From the NCBI GenBank assembly GCA_000004985.1, contig GG739122.1: a stretch of DNA of 7,631 nucleotides; one strand, given 5' to 3'. Positions 588 through 7,448 of this stretch are shown here, piece after piece (within the stretch, counting starts at the first letter, position 1; each line of letters opens with the position of its first letter). Below the pieces are notes generated by a model. It was not told where the DNA came from. It ran no database searches and saw only the letters and a list, made by a program, of their open reading frames with translations. Made by a program: the position numbers and the translations under genes. The DNA comes from Naegleria gruberi. Taxonomy: Eukaryota.

Positions 588-1571
588 ATGCAACAAAATA
601 TTAGTGTTGGTCAACAACAACAACAAGCCTTCACTAATTATTATGAACAACAACAACCATCATCATCTAATAACAATATAATAACATCATCATCATCATC
701 ATTTAATTCTAATATTAACAATAATATTAATTCTAATAATAATAATAGAATGAATCAAAAAGAAATATATACATATAATTCAGATTGGATGATATATTCA
801 CTTTCATGGTCAGTTAGAAGAGATGAAAAGTATAGACTTGCAATTGGATCATTTATAGAAGAATATAGAAATAAAGTAGATATAATTAAATTAAATAATG
901 ATAATATATTAGAAAGAGTTGCACAATTTGAACATCCATATCCTGCTACTAAAATACAATTTCATCCTTCTGCTTCTATTAATAATCCTGATTTAATTGC
1001 TACTTCAGGTGATTATTTACGTTTATGGAATATTAATAATAATAATTCAACAACTAGTACTAGTAATAATAATATGAATGTGAATAATGTGAATAATGTG
1101 AATAATAATAATAACATTTCATCACAACAACAACAACAAACAGTTCAAACAGTACAAAAATATCATACATTTAATAATGATAGTTCAAGTGAATTTTGTG
1201 CACCATTAACAAGTTTTGATTGGTGTGAATATAATCCTAATATGATTGGTACTTGTTCAATTGATACAACATGTACAATATGGGATATTCCAACAGGTAA
1301 ATCTAAAACACAACTCGTTGCACATGATAAAGAAGTTTATGATATTTCATTTAAAGATGAAAATATATTTTGTACAGTTGGTGCAGATGGTAGTTTGAGA
1401 ATGTTTGATTTACGTTCATTAGAACATTGTTCAATTTTATATGAACATGAACAATTACAACCTTTATTAAGATTAGCATGGAACAAACAAGATCCAAATT
1501 ATATTGCTACCATTTCAATGGATTCAAATATTATTGTTTTAATTGATATTAGATTATCTTCAATTCCATTA
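588..1571 (+). CDS. DCAF7: DCAF7/WDR68 (TTG1/AN11-family) WD40-repeat protein ortholog. The 5' part of the CDS is visible (328 codons). The C-terminal ~95-100 residues lie inside the masked block that starts at 1572. No intron is needed in the visible part.
   Basis: The translation aligns block by block with human DCAF7 as I recall it. KEIYTYNSDWMIYSLSWSVRRDEKYRLAIGSFIEEYRNKV matches [47 protein letters not shown] matches [21 protein letters not shown] matches [51 protein letters not shown] matches [53 protein letters not shown] matches [39 protein letters not shown]...PLLRLAWNKQDPNYIATISMD matches VGADGSVRMFDLRHLEHSTIIYE...PLLRLCWNKQDPNYLATMAMD. The ATG has an A-rich context. The ORF stays open continuously up to the mask. 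Confidence 0.9.
1077..1103 (+). repeat. Perfect in-frame tandem 9-mer (aatgtgaat)x3 inside the DCAF7 CDS, encoding NVN NVN NVN. It sits within a larger N/S/T/Q-rich insertion (about 1030..1190) that corresponds to a short inter-blade loop in animal DCAF7.
   Basis: Direct reading: aatgtgaat aatgtgaat aatgtgaat, followed by aataataataac and a caa x5 run at 1126..1141. Confidence 0.85.
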
Positions 1572-2821
1572 NNNNNNNNNNNNNNNNNNNNNNNNNNNNN
1601 NNNNNNNNNNNNNNNNNNNNNNNNNNNNNNNNNNNNNNNNNNNNNNNNNNNNNNNNNNNNNNNNNNNNNNNNNNNNNNNNNNNNNNNNNNNNNNNNNNNN
1701 NNNNNNNNNNNNNNNNNNNNNNNNNNNNNNNNNNNNNNNNNNNNNNNNNNNNNNNNNNNNNNNNNNNNNNNNNNNNNNNNNNNNNNNNNNNNNNNNNNNN
1801 NNNNNNNNNNNNNNNNNNNNNNNNNNNNNNNNNNNNNNNNNNNNNNNNNNNNNNNNNNNNNNNNNNNNNNNNNNNNNNNNNNNNNNNNNNNNNNNNNNNN
1901 NNNNNNNNNNNNNNNNNNNNNNNNNNNNNNNNNNNNNNNNNNNNNNNNNNNNNNNNNNNNNNNNNNNNNNNNNNNNNNNNNNNNNNNNNNNNNNNNNNNN
2001 NNNNNNNNNNNNNNNNNNNNNNNNNNNNNNNNNNNNNNNNNNNNNNNNNNNNNNNNNNNNNNNNNNNNNNNNNNNNNNNNNNNNNNNNNNNNNNNNNNNN
2101 NNNNNNNNNNNNNNNNNNNNNNNNNNNNNNNNNNNNNNNNNNNNNNNNNNNNNNNNNNNNNNNNNNNNNNNNNNNNNNNNNNNNNNNNNNNNNNNNNNNN
2201 NNNNNNNNNNNNNNNNNNNNNNNNNNNNNNNNNNNNNNNNNNNNNNNNNNNNNNNNNNNNNNNNNNNNNNNNNNNNNNNNNNNNNNNNNNNNNNNNNNNN
2301 NNNNNNNNNNNNNNNNNNNNNNNNNNNNNNNNNNNNNNNNNNNNNNNNNNNNNNNNNNNNNNNNNNNNNNNNNNNNNNNNNNNNNNNNNNNNNNNNNNNN
2401 NNNNNNNNNNNNNNNNNNNNNNNNNNNNNNNNNNNNNNNNNNNNNNNNNNNNNNNNNNNNNNNNNNNNNNNNNNNNNNNNNNNNNNNNNNNNNNNNNNNN
2501 NNNNNNNNNNNNNNNNNNNNNNNNNNNNNNNNNNNNNNNNNNNNNNNNNNNNNNNNNNNNNNNNNNNNNNNNNNNNNNNNNNNNNNNNNNNNNNNNNNNN
2601 NNNNNNNNNNNNNNNNNNNNNNNNNNNNNNNNNNNNNNNNNNNNNNNNNNNNNNNNNNNNNNNNNNNNNNNNNNNNNNNNNNNNNNNNNNNNNNNNNNNN
2701 NNNNNNNNNNNNNNNNNNNNNNNNNNNNNNNNNNNNNNNNNNNNNNNNNNNNNNNNNNNNNNNNNNNNNNNNNNNNNNNNNNNNNNNNNNNNNNNNNNNN
2801 NNNNNNNNNNNNNNNNNNNNN
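1572..2821. other. Hard-masked block of 1,250 N. It must contain the remaining DCAF7 coding sequence (expected ~290 nt if intronless) and its 3' UTR, plus up to ~950 nt of unknown content.
   Basis: The N run is seen directly. The expected DCAF7 remainder follows from ortholog length (established knowledge). Confidence 1.
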
Positions 2822-3130
2822 CATAACTATGGTTAGTGTATGATTATTCATTTTCGTGTTGATATAAAGGCTAAAGTGGATATGCCTAGAAAGCGGCTTA
2901 TAAGATTAGTGGCATTACCTTCCTATTTAAATAACCATAAAGTGGGAATGTGAAGAACTTCCAATACACCTATGAATTAGGTTACATTATGTGTACAGCA
3001 AAATCAGCGTATTTAAATGGAGCGTATGTTATATAGTTACTCTTATAGGATAAAAATACATAGTAATATCTGTACTCGCAACACAACCAATAATAATGCT
3101 TTTTAATTATTCCATTCAAACTGAGGGTGC
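2822..3130. other. Non-coding block with atypical composition (~35-40% GC, no long A/T homopolymers, no ORF of 60 aa or more). It lies between the masked block and the stop of the minus-strand gene at 3131. It is formally the 3' UTR/flank of that gene but carries no AATAAA on the minus strand. It may be a transposon remnant or ncRNA, unresolved.
   Basis: Base composition counted by eye on 2861..2960 (~38% GC), against ~80-85% AT in the other intergenic stretches (1..587, 6537..6582, 7449..7631). No AATAAA (TTTATT on plus) within 300 nt 3' of the stop. No tRNA-like GTTCGA/TTCGAATCC box found. Confidence 0.4.
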
Positions 3131-3451
3131 TCATAGAGAAGTCTGAAGAAAGAAATATTTGCTTCTTGGATCTAATTTAATTAAATCTTCAAAGAGTGAT
3201 TTAACTTCATCGACTGTCTTGTAAAATGTGGATTTTTTCAATAGAGTTTCAATCATTTCTAATGATCGTTCTGTGAATTTCACTTCTGTAATTTCTTGTT
3301 GTTTTCTTGGCATATTTTCCATCCAATCTGCAACTTTGGCAAATAAATTACTATCATCGAGTTCAACAGTGGAGGCACTTGGCATTGATGAACTAGTTTC
3401 TTCATCAGTCTTTCGTTTCTTTGTTGAGTTTTCCGGGTTTTCTTCAAAACA
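3131..3451 (-). CDS. Terminal coding block of a hypothetical minus-strand protein, 107 stop-free codons ending in TGA at 3131..3133 (...CFEENPENSTKKRKTDEETSSSMPSASTVELDDSNLFAKVADWMENMPRKQQEITEVKFTERSLEMIETLLKKSTFYKTVDEVKSLFEDLIKLDPRSKYFFLQTSL*). It contains a KKRK basic cluster (possible NLS). It is in the same frame as the upstream block 3539..3700 but separated from it by in-frame TGA (3476..3478) and TAG (3452..3454).
   Basis: I translated the minus strand in all three frames by hand. This frame is open for 107 codons in a region where the other two frames are full of stops, and the peptide has a protein-like mix of charged and hydrophobic residues. The first in-frame ATG is at 3383..3385 (this is the 84-aa ORF in the track). 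No family recognised. Confidence 0.55.
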   Translation of the reverse strand, partial: CFEENPENSTKKRKTDEETSSSMPSASTVELDDSNLFAKVADWMENMPRKQQEITEVKFTERSLEMIETLLKKSTFYKTVDEVKSLFEDLIKLDPRSKYFFLQTSL

Positions 3452-3538
3452 CTACTGCTTCCTTTGGGAATGAGTTCAACTCGAGGTGAAACACGTTTTA
3501 AAATAAAAAATTCTGAATAGGAGACAGAAAAAAGGTAA

Positions 3539-3700
3539 CTTTCCATTATAAATAAAAACGCTATTGAAATTCTTAGAGAGCTCAACAAGAAGATAGGTAA
3601 TGAACCATTCATCAATGTTAGTCTCTGAAATTAACTCTTCCACAAATGGATAAACAGGTTGATTATTTCTGAGAAACTTCCTCGGTGCAATCTTAGTGCT
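3539..3700 (-). CDS. Internal or penultimate coding exon of the same hypothetical minus-strand gene. It starts immediately after a 3' splice acceptor (ttaataatttCAG|) and encodes STKIAPRKFLRNNQPVYPFVEELISETNIDEWFITYLLVELSKNFNSVFIYNGK. If read straight through it continues LPFFCLLFRIFYFKTCFTSS* to the TGA at 3476.
   Basis: Minus frame 3 is clean and protein-like from 3700 downward. It is preceded in-frame by TAG, TAA and TAA (3730..3707) and by a pyrimidine/AT-rich tract ending in CAG at 3701..3703, which is the classic 3' splice-site architecture. The other frames carry multiple stops. The long frame-A ORF in the track (3280..3615, TTG start) gives a less protein-like peptide. Confidence 0.55.
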
Positions 3701-3732
3701 CTGAAATTATTAATCAAGATGGTGAAGCTATT
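3701..3732 (-). other. 3' end of an intron of the minus-strand gene (acceptor ...cttgattaataatttcag|AGC). The rest of the intron and all upstream exons are inside the masked block.
   Basis: In-frame stops plus an AT-rich tract plus CAG immediately before the open coding frame. Confidence 0.45.
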
Positions 3733-6190
3733 NNNNNNNNNNNNNNNNNNNNNNNNNNNNNNNNNNNNNNNNNNNNNNNNNNNNNNNNNNNNNNNNNNNN
3801 NNNNNNNNNNNNNNNNNNNNNNNNNNNNNNNNNNNNNNNNNNNNNNNNNNNNNNNNNNNNNNNNNNNNNNNNNNNNNNNNNNNNNNNNNNNNNNNNNNNN
3901 NNNNNNNNNNNNNNNNNNNNNNNNNNNNNNNNNNNNNNNNNNNNNNNNNNNNNNNNNNNNNNNNNNNNNNNNNNNNNNNNNNNNNNNNNNNNNNNNNNNN
4001 NNNNNNNNNNNNNNNNNNNNNNNNNNNNNNNNNNNNNNNNNNNNNNNNNNNNNNNNNNNNNNNNNNNNNNNNNNNNNNNNNNNNNNNNNNNNNNNNNNNN
4101 NNNNNNNNNNNNNNNNNNNNNNNNNNNNNNNNNNNNNNNNNNNNNNNNNNNNNNNNNNNNNNNNNNNNNNNNNNNNNNNNNNNNNNNNNNNNNNNNNNNN
4201 NNNNNNNNNNNNNNNNNNNNNNNNNNNNNNNNNNNNNNNNNNNNNNNNNNNNNNNNNNNNNNNNNNNNNNNNNNNNNNNNNNNNNNNNNNNNNNNNNNNN
4301 NNNNNNNNNNNNNNNNNNNNNNNNNNNNNNNNNNNNNNNNNNNNNNNNNNNNNNNNNNNNNNNNNNNNNNNNNNNNNNNNNNNNNNNNNNNNNNNNNNNN
4401 NNNNNNNNNNNNNNNNNNNNNNNNNNNNNNNNNNNNNNNNNNNNNNNNNNNNNNNNNNNNNNNNNNNNNNNNNNNNNNNNNNNNNNNNNNNNNNNNNNNN
4501 NNNNNNNNNNNNNNNNNNNNNNNNNNNNNNNNNNNNNNNNNNNNNNNNNNNNNNNNNNNNNNNNNNNNNNNNNNNNNNNNNNNNNNNNNNNNNNNNNNNN
4601 NNNNNNNNNNNNNNNNNNNNNNNNNNNNNNNNNNNNNNNNNNNNNNNNNNNNNNNNNNNNNNNNNNNNNNNNNNNNNNNNNNNNNNNNNNNNNNNNNNNN
4701 NNNNNNNNNNNNNNNNNNNNNNNNNNNNNNNNNNNNNNNNNNNNNNNNNNNNNNNNNNNNNNNNNNNNNNNNNNNNNNNNNNNNNNNNNNNNNNNNNNNN
4801 NNNNNNNNNNNNNNNNNNNNNNNNNNNNNNNNNNNNNNNNNNNNNNNNNNNNNNNNNNNNNNNNNNNNNNNNNNNNNNNNNNNNNNNNNNNNNNNNNNNN
4901 NNNNNNNNNNNNNNNNNNNNNNNNNNNNNNNNNNNNNNNNNNNNNNNNNNNNNNNNNNNNNNNNNNNNNNNNNNNNNNNNNNNNNNNNNNNNNNNNNNNN
5001 NNNNNNNNNNNNNNNNNNNNNNNNNNNNNNNNNNNNNNNNNNNNNNNNNNNNNNNNNNNNNNNNNNNNNNNNNNNNNNNNNNNNNNNNNNNNNNNNNNNN
5101 NNNNNNNNNNNNNNNNNNNNNNNNNNNNNNNNNNNNNNNNNNNNNNNNNNNNNNNNNNNNNNNNNNNNNNNNNNNNNNNNNNNNNNNNNNNNNNNNNNNN
5201 NNNNNNNNNNNNNNNNNNNNNNNNNNNNNNNNNNNNNNNNNNNNNNNNNNNNNNNNNNNNNNNNNNNNNNNNNNNNNNNNNNNNNNNNNNNNNNNNNNNN
5301 NNNNNNNNNNNNNNNNNNNNNNNNNNNNNNNNNNNNNNNNNNNNNNNNNNNNNNNNNNNNNNNNNNNNNNNNNNNNNNNNNNNNNNNNNNNNNNNNNNNN
5401 NNNNNNNNNNNNNNNNNNNNNNNNNNNNNNNNNNNNNNNNNNNNNNNNNNNNNNNNNNNNNNNNNNNNNNNNNNNNNNNNNNNNNNNNNNNNNNNNNNNN
5501 NNNNNNNNNNNNNNNNNNNNNNNNNNNNNNNNNNNNNNNNNNNNNNNNNNNNNNNNNNNNNNNNNNNNNNNNNNNNNNNNNNNNNNNNNNNNNNNNNNNN
5601 NNNNNNNNNNNNNNNNNNNNNNNNNNNNNNNNNNNNNNNNNNNNNNNNNNNNNNNNNNNNNNNNNNNNNNNNNNNNNNNNNNNNNNNNNNNNNNNNNNNN
5701 NNNNNNNNNNNNNNNNNNNNNNNNNNNNNNNNNNNNNNNNNNNNNNNNNNNNNNNNNNNNNNNNNNNNNNNNNNNNNNNNNNNNNNNNNNNNNNNNNNNN
5801 NNNNNNNNNNNNNNNNNNNNNNNNNNNNNNNNNNNNNNNNNNNNNNNNNNNNNNNNNNNNNNNNNNNNNNNNNNNNNNNNNNNNNNNNNNNNNNNNNNNN
5901 NNNNNNNNNNNNNNNNNNNNNNNNNNNNNNNNNNNNNNNNNNNNNNNNNNNNNNNNNNNNNNNNNNNNNNNNNNNNNNNNNNNNNNNNNNNNNNNNNNNN
6001 NNNNNNNNNNNNNNNNNNNNNNNNNNNNNNNNNNNNNNNNNNNNNNNNNNNNNNNNNNNNNNNNNNNNNNNNNNNNNNNNNNNNNNNNNNNNNNNNNNNN
6101 NNNNNNNNNNNNNNNNNNNNNNNNNNNNNNNNNNNNNNNNNNNNNNNNNNNNNNNNNNNNNNNNNNNNNNNNNNNNNNNNNNNNNNNNNN
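3733..6190. other. Hard-masked block of 2,458 N. It lies between the N-terminal ORF at 6191..6536 and the C-terminal exons at 3131..3700 on the minus strand. It may hold the body of one long gene (about 1,000 aa if contiguous) or several features. It cannot be assessed.
   Basis: N run seen directly. Confidence 1.
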
Positions 6191-6536
6191 TTAATATATT
6201 TAATTGTTTTGTAATAAATTCTTGTTTTGCTTTATTTGATTGATATTTATATAAATAATATAATATTATTAATACTATTATAAATTTAAAAAATAATCTC
6301 TTCTTTTTAGGTTTTAATGGTTGTTGTTGTTCATGTTGTTGTTGATTATTAAATTGTTGTTCATATTGTTGATAATTGATTATTCTTGTTGAAAATGATC
6401 GGATTGATGATTTATTTTGTACAATTAAATAAGTATACTTTAAAATATCATTACAATTATTATGAATATGAAGATCATTAAATGATTTCCTAATAATATT
6501 ATTGATATTATTATTTAATAGCTTTTTGATTGACAT
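6191..6536 (-). CDS. N-terminal 115 codons of a hypothetical Q/N-rich membrane protein: MSIKKLLNNNINNIIRKSFNDLHIHNNCNDILKYTYLIVQNKSSIRSFSTRIINYQQYEQQFNNQQQHEQQQPLKPKKKRLFFKFIIVLIILYYLYKYQSNKAKQEFITKQLNIL... It has one predicted TM helix (LFFKFIIVLIILYYLYKY, about 6243..6296) preceded by a KPKKKR cluster (positive-inside). The basic, Ser/Arg-containing N-terminus could also be an organellar presequence. The ORF continues into the mask.
   Basis: The ATG at 6534..6536 sits in an A9 context (attaaaaaaaaATGtca) with an in-frame TAG 4 codons upstream. Codon usage is typical dictyostelid coding (caa, aat, tta, aaa). It is open for 115 codons in >80% AT sequence, where random frames close quickly. 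Whether it belongs to the same gene as 3131..3700 cannot be seen. Confidence 0.6.
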
Positions 6537-6581
6537 TTTTTTTTTAATCTAATTTTAAAAAAACTGAAATCAAAAAACAAA

Positions 6582-6587
6582 TTTATT
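6582..6587 (-). promoter_or_regulatory. AATAAA polyadenylation hexamer overlapping the MLF stop codon (agaaAATAAAtttg on the minus strand).
   Basis: Seen in sequence. A hexamer overlapping the TAA stop is common in AT-rich genomes, so this is weak evidence by itself. Confidence 0.45.
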
Positions 6588-7271
6588 TTCTCTTTTCATA
6601 ACTCAATGCTCCTCTAATTCTATTATTATTATTATTACTAGTAGTAGTATTATTACATGTATCATGTGTTAAAGATGATGAAGAGGATGATTTAAATTTA
6701 GGTAATTGTTTTGAATATTGTTTCCATTCTTTATCAAAATCTTGATCAGTTGAAACATTTTCAAGTTTCTTAAATACATGTTCTTTACCTTGTTTATCTC
6801 TTGTTTTTTCTAATAGACTCTTTTTATCACCAACTTGTTTTGTAATTGATACCTTCTCTGTACCTGTTCTTGAATCTTTAATTATTTCTTTTCTTTTACT
6901 TATTTTAGATCCATCTCTATTACTTGAAATACTTGAAAAAGATGATGAATAATATGAATTAGCATTATCAAAATTTGAATGATTGTTAATATTATTGAAA
7001 TGAGAATTAAAGTCTTCATCCATTCTTTTAAATAATTGTTCACTTCTTTTCATTGATGACATCATGTCAAATGGTGAATTTGAAAAGAATGGATCATTAT
7101 CAAAGAATGAATTTGACATCTTCATCATATTAAATGGATCTTCACTTCTTCTTCTTCTATCATTATTATTAGAATTAGTATTTGAATTATTTGAATTATT
7201 ACTATTTGAAGTTGTTCTACTTCTTGTTGAATTGGAAGATGAAGAATGATAATGTCTATAATTATTAATAT
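6583..7271 (-). CDS. MLF: Myeloid leukemia factor (MLF1/MLF2/dMLF) family protein, main and terminal exon, ending ...RIRGALSYEKRK* (TAA 6583..6585). It contains the family signature N-terminal motif MMKMSNSFFDNDPFFSNSPFDMM and the central/C-terminal block ...STDQDFDKEWKQYSKQLPKFK.
   Basis: Matches to human MLF1 as I recall it: SFFDNDPFFSNS against N-terminal MFRMLNSSFEDDPFFSES, and DQDFDKEWKQYSK against DAHAFDEEWQSEVLKYK. Both proteins have K/R-rich tails. The 181-aa ORF in the track starts at ATG 7126..7128, which is where human MLF1 begins. The frame stays open 57 codons further upstream to 7326. Confidence 0.85.
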
Positions 7272-7330
7272 CTATGATTGTTTGTTGTGGTATTCTTAAT
7301 AATGGAATGTAAACTAGTAGTGATACTTAC
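7272..7330 (-). other. Probable 59-nt intron of the MLF gene, phase 1: GTAAGTatcactactagtttacattccattattaagaataccacaacaaacaatcatAG.
   Basis: There is a canonical GTAAGT donor whose TAA is the only stop closing the upstream extension of the MLF frame. An acceptor AG at 7272..7273 restores the frame exactly: exon 1 ends ...gat gat c, and exon 2 starts at att aat. The intron is short and less AT-rich than typical dictyostelid introns. An alternative acceptor at 7255..7256 (tatAG) does not keep frame. Confidence 0.5.
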
Positions 7331-7448
7331 GATCATCTGGATCTTCGTATCTTACACTACTACCATTGCTACTACTCATATGATCACCATATTCATCATC
7401 ATCTGATAATTCTTCAAACATTGGTCCTTGATGTTTTGTTTTTCTCAT
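7331..7448 (-). CDS. MLF: Proposed first coding exon of the MLF gene, MRKTKHQGPMFEELSDDDEYGDHMSSSNGSSVRYEDPDD(H), giving a 268-aa product when spliced to 7271. The alternative model has no exon 1 and starts at the ATG at 7126..7128.
   Basis: ATG at 7446..7448 in a tgaaaATGa context. It is open to the GTAAGT donor. Joining gives a continuous frame through a low-complexity H/S/N/R-rich linker into the conserved MLF motif. Confidence 0.45.

Follow-up and report, generated by a model that had tools for sequence, protein, structure and literature searches.

A TRMO-derived segment and a second open reading frame flank 87 nucleotides of a draft Naegleria gruberi scaffold

The described systems closest to the locus reported here are the gene for TRMO (TrmO), a TsaA-like tRNA m6t6A methyltransferase with a catalytic N-terminal barrel (TrmO_N) and a C-terminal domain (TrmO_C), truncated pseudogenes, the ordinary introns of Naegleria, and the ecdysoneless (ECD)/SGT1 protein family (PF07093). 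The locus itself lies on a complete scaffold of 7,631 nucleotides (nt), here called the window, from the gap-ridden draft genome of Naegleria gruberi NEG-M. On the minus strand of the window, two blocks that are open in the same reading frame, block A (3539..3706) and block B (3131..3451), are set apart by 87 nt (3452..3538) that hold two in-frame stop codons. A preliminary description of this interval had offered several readings of it: a non-canonical intron, the end of one protein followed by a separate open reading frame (ORF), a pseudogene or degenerating transposable-element ORF, stop-codon readthrough or recoding, and errors in the draft sequence.

Compared with the TRMO homologue KAG2393867.1 of Naegleria lovaniensis, positions 3421..3156 of the window align to residues 215-306 with 63-64% identity over a Naegleria-specific linker and the first half of TrmO_C, whereas the 911-nt contig that carries both blocks has no TrmO_N barrel, TrmO_C is cut past DPRSKY, and no in-frame start codon lies upstream. 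Block B resembles truncated pseudogenes and other gene relics in its partial, internal homology, its abrupt flanks, its lack of a start codon, its premature end and its lack of annotation, but it has no internal stop or frameshift over the homologous 89 codons, and neither a target-site duplication nor a poly(A) tail nor any hallmark of a transposon came to light at it. The 87 nt are like ordinary Naegleria introns (for example 7330-7272 in NAEGRDRAFT_76749) in length, GC content and their CAGTAG end; unlike those introns, they begin with TTACCT (GTTACC if shifted by one base), and their flanking "exons" are contiguous in no homologue. Block A contains a motif that matches the N-terminal motif of the ECD/SGT1 family, but it covers only ~20 of the 587 profile positions, and too little sequence lies downstream to hold the other ~500 residues.

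We favor the reading that the 87 nt are non-coding and separate an unrelated ORF from a truncated fragment of a TRMO gene that had escaped annotation, and we put its probability at about 0.5. Block B would then be an internal piece of a TRMO gene, about 270-290 nt long and equivalent to residues ~213-306 of 386, which has neither the catalytic TrmO_N barrel nor the second half of TrmO_C and which passes into seven unrelated codons and a stop. Block A would be an exon-like ORF that starts from a good acceptor, lacks a start codon and a usable donor, and ends at the first in-frame stop, TGA 3478-3476. The agreement in frame between the two would be a matter of chance, with odds of 1/3. Because blocks A and B are unrelated and lie on a gap-ridden draft scaffold, no unusual intron or recoding would be needed to account for them.

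Identity and limits of block B

Translation of the minus strand confirmed the layout given in the preliminary description: two blocks in the same frame, spaced by 87 nt, with TGA at 3478-3476, TAG at 3454-3452 and an ATG at 3385. With codon starts at 3451+3k, this frame carries three stops at 3730-3707 and is open from 3706. Block A opens there with FQ, continues as STKIAPRK, is exon-like from 3700 and ends in FIYNGK at 3539. Across the 87 nt the frame reads LPFFCLLFRIFYFKTCFTSS, the TGA, THSQRKQ and the TAG; the codons between the two stops number seven, not the eight first counted. Block B runs from CFEENPENS to LQTSL and is closed by TGA 3133-3131. It contains an ORF of 84 amino acids (3385..3131), whose ATG lies 90 nt past the TGA at 3478-3476 and which is absent as a protein from the public collection. 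Both blocks and the 87 nt are confined to a 911-nt island of sequence, 2822-3732, which stands between gaps of 1,250 and 2,458 nt.

An exhaustive HMMER/phmmer search with block B returned six proteins. The best match was the TsaA-like protein KAG2393867.1 of N. lovaniensis (E 2.7e-26, 64% identity), in which about residues 213-306 of 386 aligned with residues 9-99 of block B. Among the other five, the named proteins come from Acrasis kona and Percolomonas, and three are fragments from sequencing-run or metagenome assemblies. The library consisted of representatives at 50% identity, in which any N. gruberi orthologue would be hidden behind KAG2393867.1. Pfam puts TrmO_N (PF01980) and TrmO_C (PF18389) on the homologues of block B, and from this and established knowledge we take them to be orthologues of TRMO/TrmO (TsaA, YaeB; human C9orf156), the tRNA t6A37 N6-methyltransferase. 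Pfam returned no TrmO_C match for block B, and a metagenome scan with block B returned no relatives. When a heterolobosean profile built from seven homologues was run against six-frame segments of the three visible contigs, block B alone was matched (E 1.9e-27), and the next hit had E>2. Neither Pfam nor the family profile gave a TrmO_N signal in the six frames of these contigs, although the domain may lie in the unreadable gap at 3733-6190.

The homology has sharp limits. By tblastn, tblastx and Smith-Waterman alignment of the DNA, TRMO similarity is limited to 3421..3156, a core made up of the linker and the first half of TrmO_C, and ends abruptly at KKRK and at DPRSKY. No residual homology was found in the flanks of this core, where the remainder of the N. 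lovaniensis gene aligned only at the level of shuffled sequence. The frame of block B is shut 10 codons upstream and 7 codons downstream of the homology. Past DPRSKY, the second half of TrmO_C (RREKC..FG..D..N..C...EDWS, ~80 C-terminal residues) is replaced by FFLQTSL and a stop, a non-homologous tail (3131..3155) that starts with TTCTTTCTTCAG and contains no GT donor. The junction DPRSK[Y/H]|(R/Q/M/I) is contiguous in 6/6 homologues. In those homologues that reach further upstream, the end of TrmO_N precedes the segment represented by block B, either directly or via a linker, and nothing like block A is present. Block B thus combines partial homology with a disabling truncation, as a relic does. 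It is not to be filed as a TRMO gene, because the catalytic N-domain and a complete C-domain are both missing, and in its present form the reading frame is predicted to yield no functional enzyme. Our preferred reading of block B is a truncated pseudogene, a gene relic that is either of recent origin or still conserved.

Within its limits the segment is well preserved. Multiple alignment showed that all nine invariant family residues of this stretch are kept, and the codon score of the TRMO core exceeded those of 140/140 stop-free shuffles. The comparison with N. lovaniensis gave 0.30 for nonsynonymous (dN) and 1.37 for synonymous (dS) divergence, a dN/dS of ~0.22. With dN this low against dS, purifying selection has acted on block B over the greater part of its history, a result that fits a functional exon and a young fragment alike. 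The frame had been called convincingly coding on both sides of the 87 nt; for block B this was borne out by its E value of 2.7e-26 and its codon score, but it did not hold for block A, as described below.

Other features of this stretch were also recorded. An 18-nt imperfect inverted repeat, 3138-3155/3416-3433 (GAAGTCTGAAGAAAGAAA / TTTCTTTGTTGAGTTTTC, 78% complementary), brackets the TRMO core nearly exactly; it is A/T-rich and of low complexity, the contig has 13 pairs of this kind, and the arrangement is probably due to chance. In three homologues (P0123, P0125 and P0126) the gene calls begin or break near TP(I/V)xD(I/V)KPY, and P0126 has an 11-residue insert, GFLYFVFPDHL, at this region, so that some of the organisms concerned may have an intron close to where TrmO_N ends. 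A possible remnant of TrmO_N within the 87 nt (SPRVELIPK, in another frame, against TPIIDIKPY) was considered and found no support in Pfam, the family profile or DNA alignment.

Several observations weigh against a relic beside an unrelated ORF. The 107 codons of block B are free of internal stops and frameshifts, and its nine invariant residues and dN/dS of about 0.22 fit a functional exon as well as a young fragment; the CAGTAG at 3452 could plausibly serve it as an acceptor; and the gaps on both sides of the 911-nt contig could conceal the missing parts of TRMO. Block A adds two weak points on the same side, the length of its ORF (p~0.03) and the resemblance of its motif to SGT1 (Pfam E 0.002-0.004). 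A word-index protein search with blocks A and B found nothing, but negatives from this search carry little weight because it also missed KAG2393867.1, which is in the same collection and shares identical runs of 11 and 13 residues with block B.

The main alternative, which we consider unlikely, is that block B is an internal exon of a functional N. gruberi TRMO. The 2,458-nt gap would then hold the TrmO_N exons and the 1,250-nt gap the final one, 3452-3732 would be intron sequence or contain a lineage-specific extra exon, and the ORF of block A would be incidental. Block B is conserved as an orthologue would be (64% identity, dN/dS ~0.22, invariant residues), its homology stops as sharply as at exon edges, and the acceptor-like CAGTAG stands at 3452. 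The codon usage of block A is not significant, the flanks match resolved Naegleria introns in size and in GC content (0.345), and the breaks of heterolobosean gene calls near TP(I/V)xD(I/V)KPY hint at introns elsewhere in the gene. What tells against a working exon is above all its 3' edge. No GT occurs at or after the end of homology, AGC AAA TAT|TTCTTTCTTCAG, where the sole option is a poor GC donor, GCAAAT at 3162, and DPRSKY|RREK is uninterrupted in 6/6 homologues, the N. lovaniensis gene being one intronless ORF of 1,161 nt. Two introns peculiar to this lineage, one of 281 nt or more and the other of 334 nt or more, would have to coincide precisely with the limits of homology, and the 76-codon ORF with its SGT1-like motif would be left as a coincidence.

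Block A and the frames across the interval

Block A has no ATG, begins directly past an acceptor-like ...TTAATAATTTCAG at 3713-3701, and is followed by no usable donor. An ORF of at least 76 codons arose in 128 of 5,000 shuffles of 3452-3732 (p~0.026). The codon-usage score of block A, +8.3 bits, could not be distinguished from those of stop-free shuffles (p 0.19); it is on these two counts that the earlier statement of convincing coding character failed for this block. Against TRMO proteins block A scored at background, with Smith-Waterman scores of 24-31 and shuffle means of 27-29. The preliminary description had proposed that orthologues placing the two blocks in unrelated genes would speak against a single gene, and this is what was found. 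It had also suggested looking for the junction FIYNGK|CFEENPEN in orthologous proteins, and no counterpart appeared in the multiple alignment.

The motif DEWFITYLLVELSKNF at 3613-3566 of block A resembles the ECD/SGT1 family. Pfam PF07093 matched block A with 16.9 bits (E 0.002-0.004) at profile positions 74-94, against a gathering score of 30. For comparison we used the human ECD N-terminus, validated against Pfam at 517 bits, contiguously over profile positions 1-301. In BLASTP, DEWFITYLLVELSKNF aligned with DEWFIVYVIKQITKEF of this Pfam-validated ECD sequence, with 8/16 identities and 13/16 positives. The Smith-Waterman score of block A against ECD was 57, higher than all 2,000 shuffles (maximum 56) and higher than 32 controls with real proteins (maximum 36). 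Because the Pfam score is below the gathering threshold, block A was not assigned to ECD/SGT1, and on sequence comparison the similarity is a lead and would not amount to family membership. A longer similarity to ECD was rejected; frameshift-aware alignment lifted the score from 57 to 76 only with four frame shifts, which we judged to be overfitting. AlphaFold2 gave block A a predicted local distance difference test (pLDDT) score of 61, too low for a fold search, and no ECD relative was found in the PDB. We infer that block A is derived from coding sequence, and its source may be a gene of the ecdysoneless/SGT1 type, or it may be the final exon of a gene that the gap conceals.

The reading frame shared by blocks A and B scored negatively for codon usage over the 87 nt, from -15 to -18 bits. 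A second minus-strand frame (3280..3631, 117 codons) is open across all 87 nt, and it is the frame that paired compensating indels would need. Its codon score over the 87 nt, +7.6 bits, was weakly positive and not significant (p 0.08). This frame lends some color to an error in the draft sequence, either two compensating single-base indels (a T too many in 3534-3500 and an A too few near 3441-3425) or a chimeric or low-quality 911-nt contig. T- and A-runs are located where the shifts would be needed, and the contig is an island between gaps on a scaffold that has a sister with an allelic DCAF7 and was probably covered thinly in each haplotype. We nevertheless give sequence error only a small chance. 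Once corrected, the ORF would attach an unrelated segment to an internal part of TRMO and gains no Pfam signal, the frameshift-aware ECD alignment needs four shifts and adds little past the core motif, and indels cannot account for the disappearance of TRMO homology to either side of 3421..3156; the score of the alternative frame, moreover, is the non-significant one given above.

Splice signals and recoding in the 87 nt

Reference introns were resolved from gene coordinates and product lengths at N. fowleri and N. lovaniensis loci, together with the annotated intron 7330-7272 of the window. All seven resolved Naegleria introns start with GTAAGT, GTATGT or GTGAGT (GT[AG][AT]GT), in support of the GTAAGT/GTATGT donor consensus that had been assumed for the locus. 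They are 58-294 nt long, have a GC content of 0.20-0.39 and end in YAG or AAG. The 87 nt, with a GC content of 0.345, an ordinary length and the acceptor-like CAGTAG end, would not stand out among them by these measures. However, no donor within 3700-3452 fits GT[AG][AT]GT. Those available are GTTACC, GTTTTT, GTTGAG, GTTGAA, GTGTTT, GTCTCC and GTTTCA; GTCTCC at 3525 and GTTTCA at 3492 had been overlooked when GTTACC, GTGTTT and GTTGAA were named as the only GT dinucleotides of the interval.

A frame-restoring acceptor is present, AG 3453-3452 (CAGTAG|TGT), which opens block B in phase 0. The earlier statement that no GT has a phase-compatible AG is true if block B must start at 3451 and fails otherwise. 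Exhaustive enumeration gave the phase-compatible GT-AG pairs 3559-3452 (108 nt, ...SKNFNS|CFEENP), 3586-3452, 3480-3442 (39 nt), 3539-3393 and 3494-3393, and every one of them has a non-consensus donor. As regards homologous proteins, none shows the sequences of blocks A and B as contiguous exons. Two independent ORFs share a frame with a prior of 1/3, and because of this the spacing by a multiple of three weighs almost nothing on its own.

These pairs are what would allow blocks A and B to belong, as exons, to a single chimeric gene peculiar to the lineage, in which a piece derived from TRMO is joined to another gene. A conventional but weak GT-AG intron, at best 3559-3452 (GTTTTT...CAGTAG, 108 nt, phase 0), would take out the stops to give ...ELSKNFNS|CFEENPENS.... 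Both blocks are stop-free in the common frame, and a good acceptor precedes block A at 3701 while another ends the 87 nt at 3452. We hold this to be improbable: the donors GTTTTT, GTTGAG and GTTGAA depart from the GT[AG][AT]GT pattern of 7/7 introns, a word-index search and a look-up of public proteins found no annotated protein with these sequences, the coding signal of block A is weak, and the product would end in a truncated TrmO_C. The more specific proposal that the two blocks are exons of an expressed, N. gruberi-specific chimeric gene with a recruited TRMO segment, from which 87-108 nt are removed via a donor far from GTAAGT or via non-GT-AG termini, we rate as very improbable.

U12-type introns have the donor consensus RTATCCTT and, 10-15 nt ahead of their 3' end, the branch site TTCCTTRAC. 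An unconventional mechanism within a single gene, whether a non-GT-AG or U12-like intron (GTTACCTTTT at 3539, TTCCCAAAG 11 nt before the 3' end) or a double readthrough, is scarcely credible: the spacing is an exact multiple of three, and GTTACCTT and TTCCCAAAG loosely recall a U12 donor and branch site, but the blocks are unrelated by homology and share a frame at odds of 1/3, two mismatches fall in the best-conserved part of the donor and the frame would be kept only with GT-TA termini, and the two stops 7 codons apart come with a negative codon score and no RNA structure.

Neither form of this mechanism found support. In the U12-type intron, GTTACCTT is off at +3 and +4 and TTCCCAAAG is off at 3/9 positions, and the frame would demand GT-TA termini. 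For stop-codon readthrough, there are two different stops 7 codons apart, a negative codon score and no homologue over the stretch. A non-canonical intron and recoding, as put forward in the preliminary description, were thus left unsupported for two blocks that are unrelated by homology. Separate ORFs, and a pseudogene or degenerating ORF, came near the view favored here, but nothing points to a transposable element, and no frame gave a Pfam transposase or reverse-transcriptase signal. Folding of the 87 nt gave no RNA structure (z 0.06), Rfam returned only chance-level matches on them, there are no tRNAs and no tandem repeats, and such short repeats as occur, inverted or direct, seem to be fortuitous. 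In the literature we found no table of Naegleria splice sites, no statement on Naegleria U12 introns and nothing on Naegleria TRMO.

Scaffold, neighboring genes and significance

The gap of 1,250 N (1572..2821) lies downstream of the 911-nt contig and conceals the 3' end of DCAF7 and anything 3' of block B. The gap of 2,458 N (3733..6190) adjoins block A on its minus-strand upstream side and conceals whatever precedes that block. The N-runs are genuine scaffold gaps, because the deposited model EFC35595.1 splices across the N-run 1572-2821.

The plus-strand WD40 ORF from 588 is an orthologue of DCAF7/WDR68, and its best match is an N. gruberi predicted protein. EFC35595.1 (NAEGRDRAFT_76748) follows this DCAF7 ORF (588-1571, plus strand) as far as ~1535 and then passes to the plus-strand ORF 2870-2953. 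The model treats the 1,250-N gap as an intron, terminates in a spurious exon (AKVDMPRKRLIRLVALPSYLNNHKVGM), and lacks the last ~130 residues, which are conserved in the orthologues of N. fowleri, N. lovaniensis and Willaertia. A sister scaffold of N. gruberi, 7,687 nt long, carries an allelic or duplicate DCAF7 (EFC35605.1) with its own truncated gene model, and EFC35605.1 differs from the DCAF7 of the window by several indels in low-complexity runs of Asn, Thr and Gln. A full-length N. gruberi DCAF7 did not turn up, and this essential-looking locus seems to be present only as two fragmentary haplotype scaffolds. Because the sister scaffold carries an allelic DCAF7, this 7.6-kb leftover scaffold probably had low coverage in each haplotype.

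On the minus strand, a Mlf1IP-like gene occupies 6583-7448, with its ATG at 7448, its stop at 6583 and a Pfam PF10248 match on the second exon. Its single intron of 59 nt, 7330-7272 (GTAAGT...CATAG), is the splice-site reference within the window. The spliced translation, 268 amino acids long, is residue-for-residue identical to the deposited protein EFC35596.1 (NAEGRDRAFT_76749). Because EFC35595.1 and EFC35596.1 are consecutive accessions, the stretch from 2953 to 6583 presumably carries no annotation. In it lies a further minus-strand ORF, 6191-6536, which begins at ATG 6536 (MSIKKLLNNN...), has a hydrophobic stretch (FFKFIIVLIILYYLY), runs into the 2,458-N gap and is apparently unannotated. 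It had no Pfam match, and a word-index protein search with its N-terminus, a search unreliable for negatives, gave no homologue. As to synteny, the DCAF7 loci of N. fowleri and N. lovaniensis and the TRMO locus of N. lovaniensis share no other gene with the window.

The finding has little biological weight and is mainly a correction of annotation. What is new is an unannotated TRMO-derived segment on a N. gruberi scaffold, and a deposited DCAF7 model that is spliced across a gap into a spurious exon. The locus also carries a caution: long frames in the same phase, split by a multiple of three bases with stops, mimic an odd intron, and here the likeness would be a coincidence of 1/3 on a fragmentary draft contig. 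If blocks A and B were nonetheless joined in transcripts, they would exemplify an unusually poor splice site in a genus whose donors hardly vary, which would be of moderate interest for the evolution of introns.

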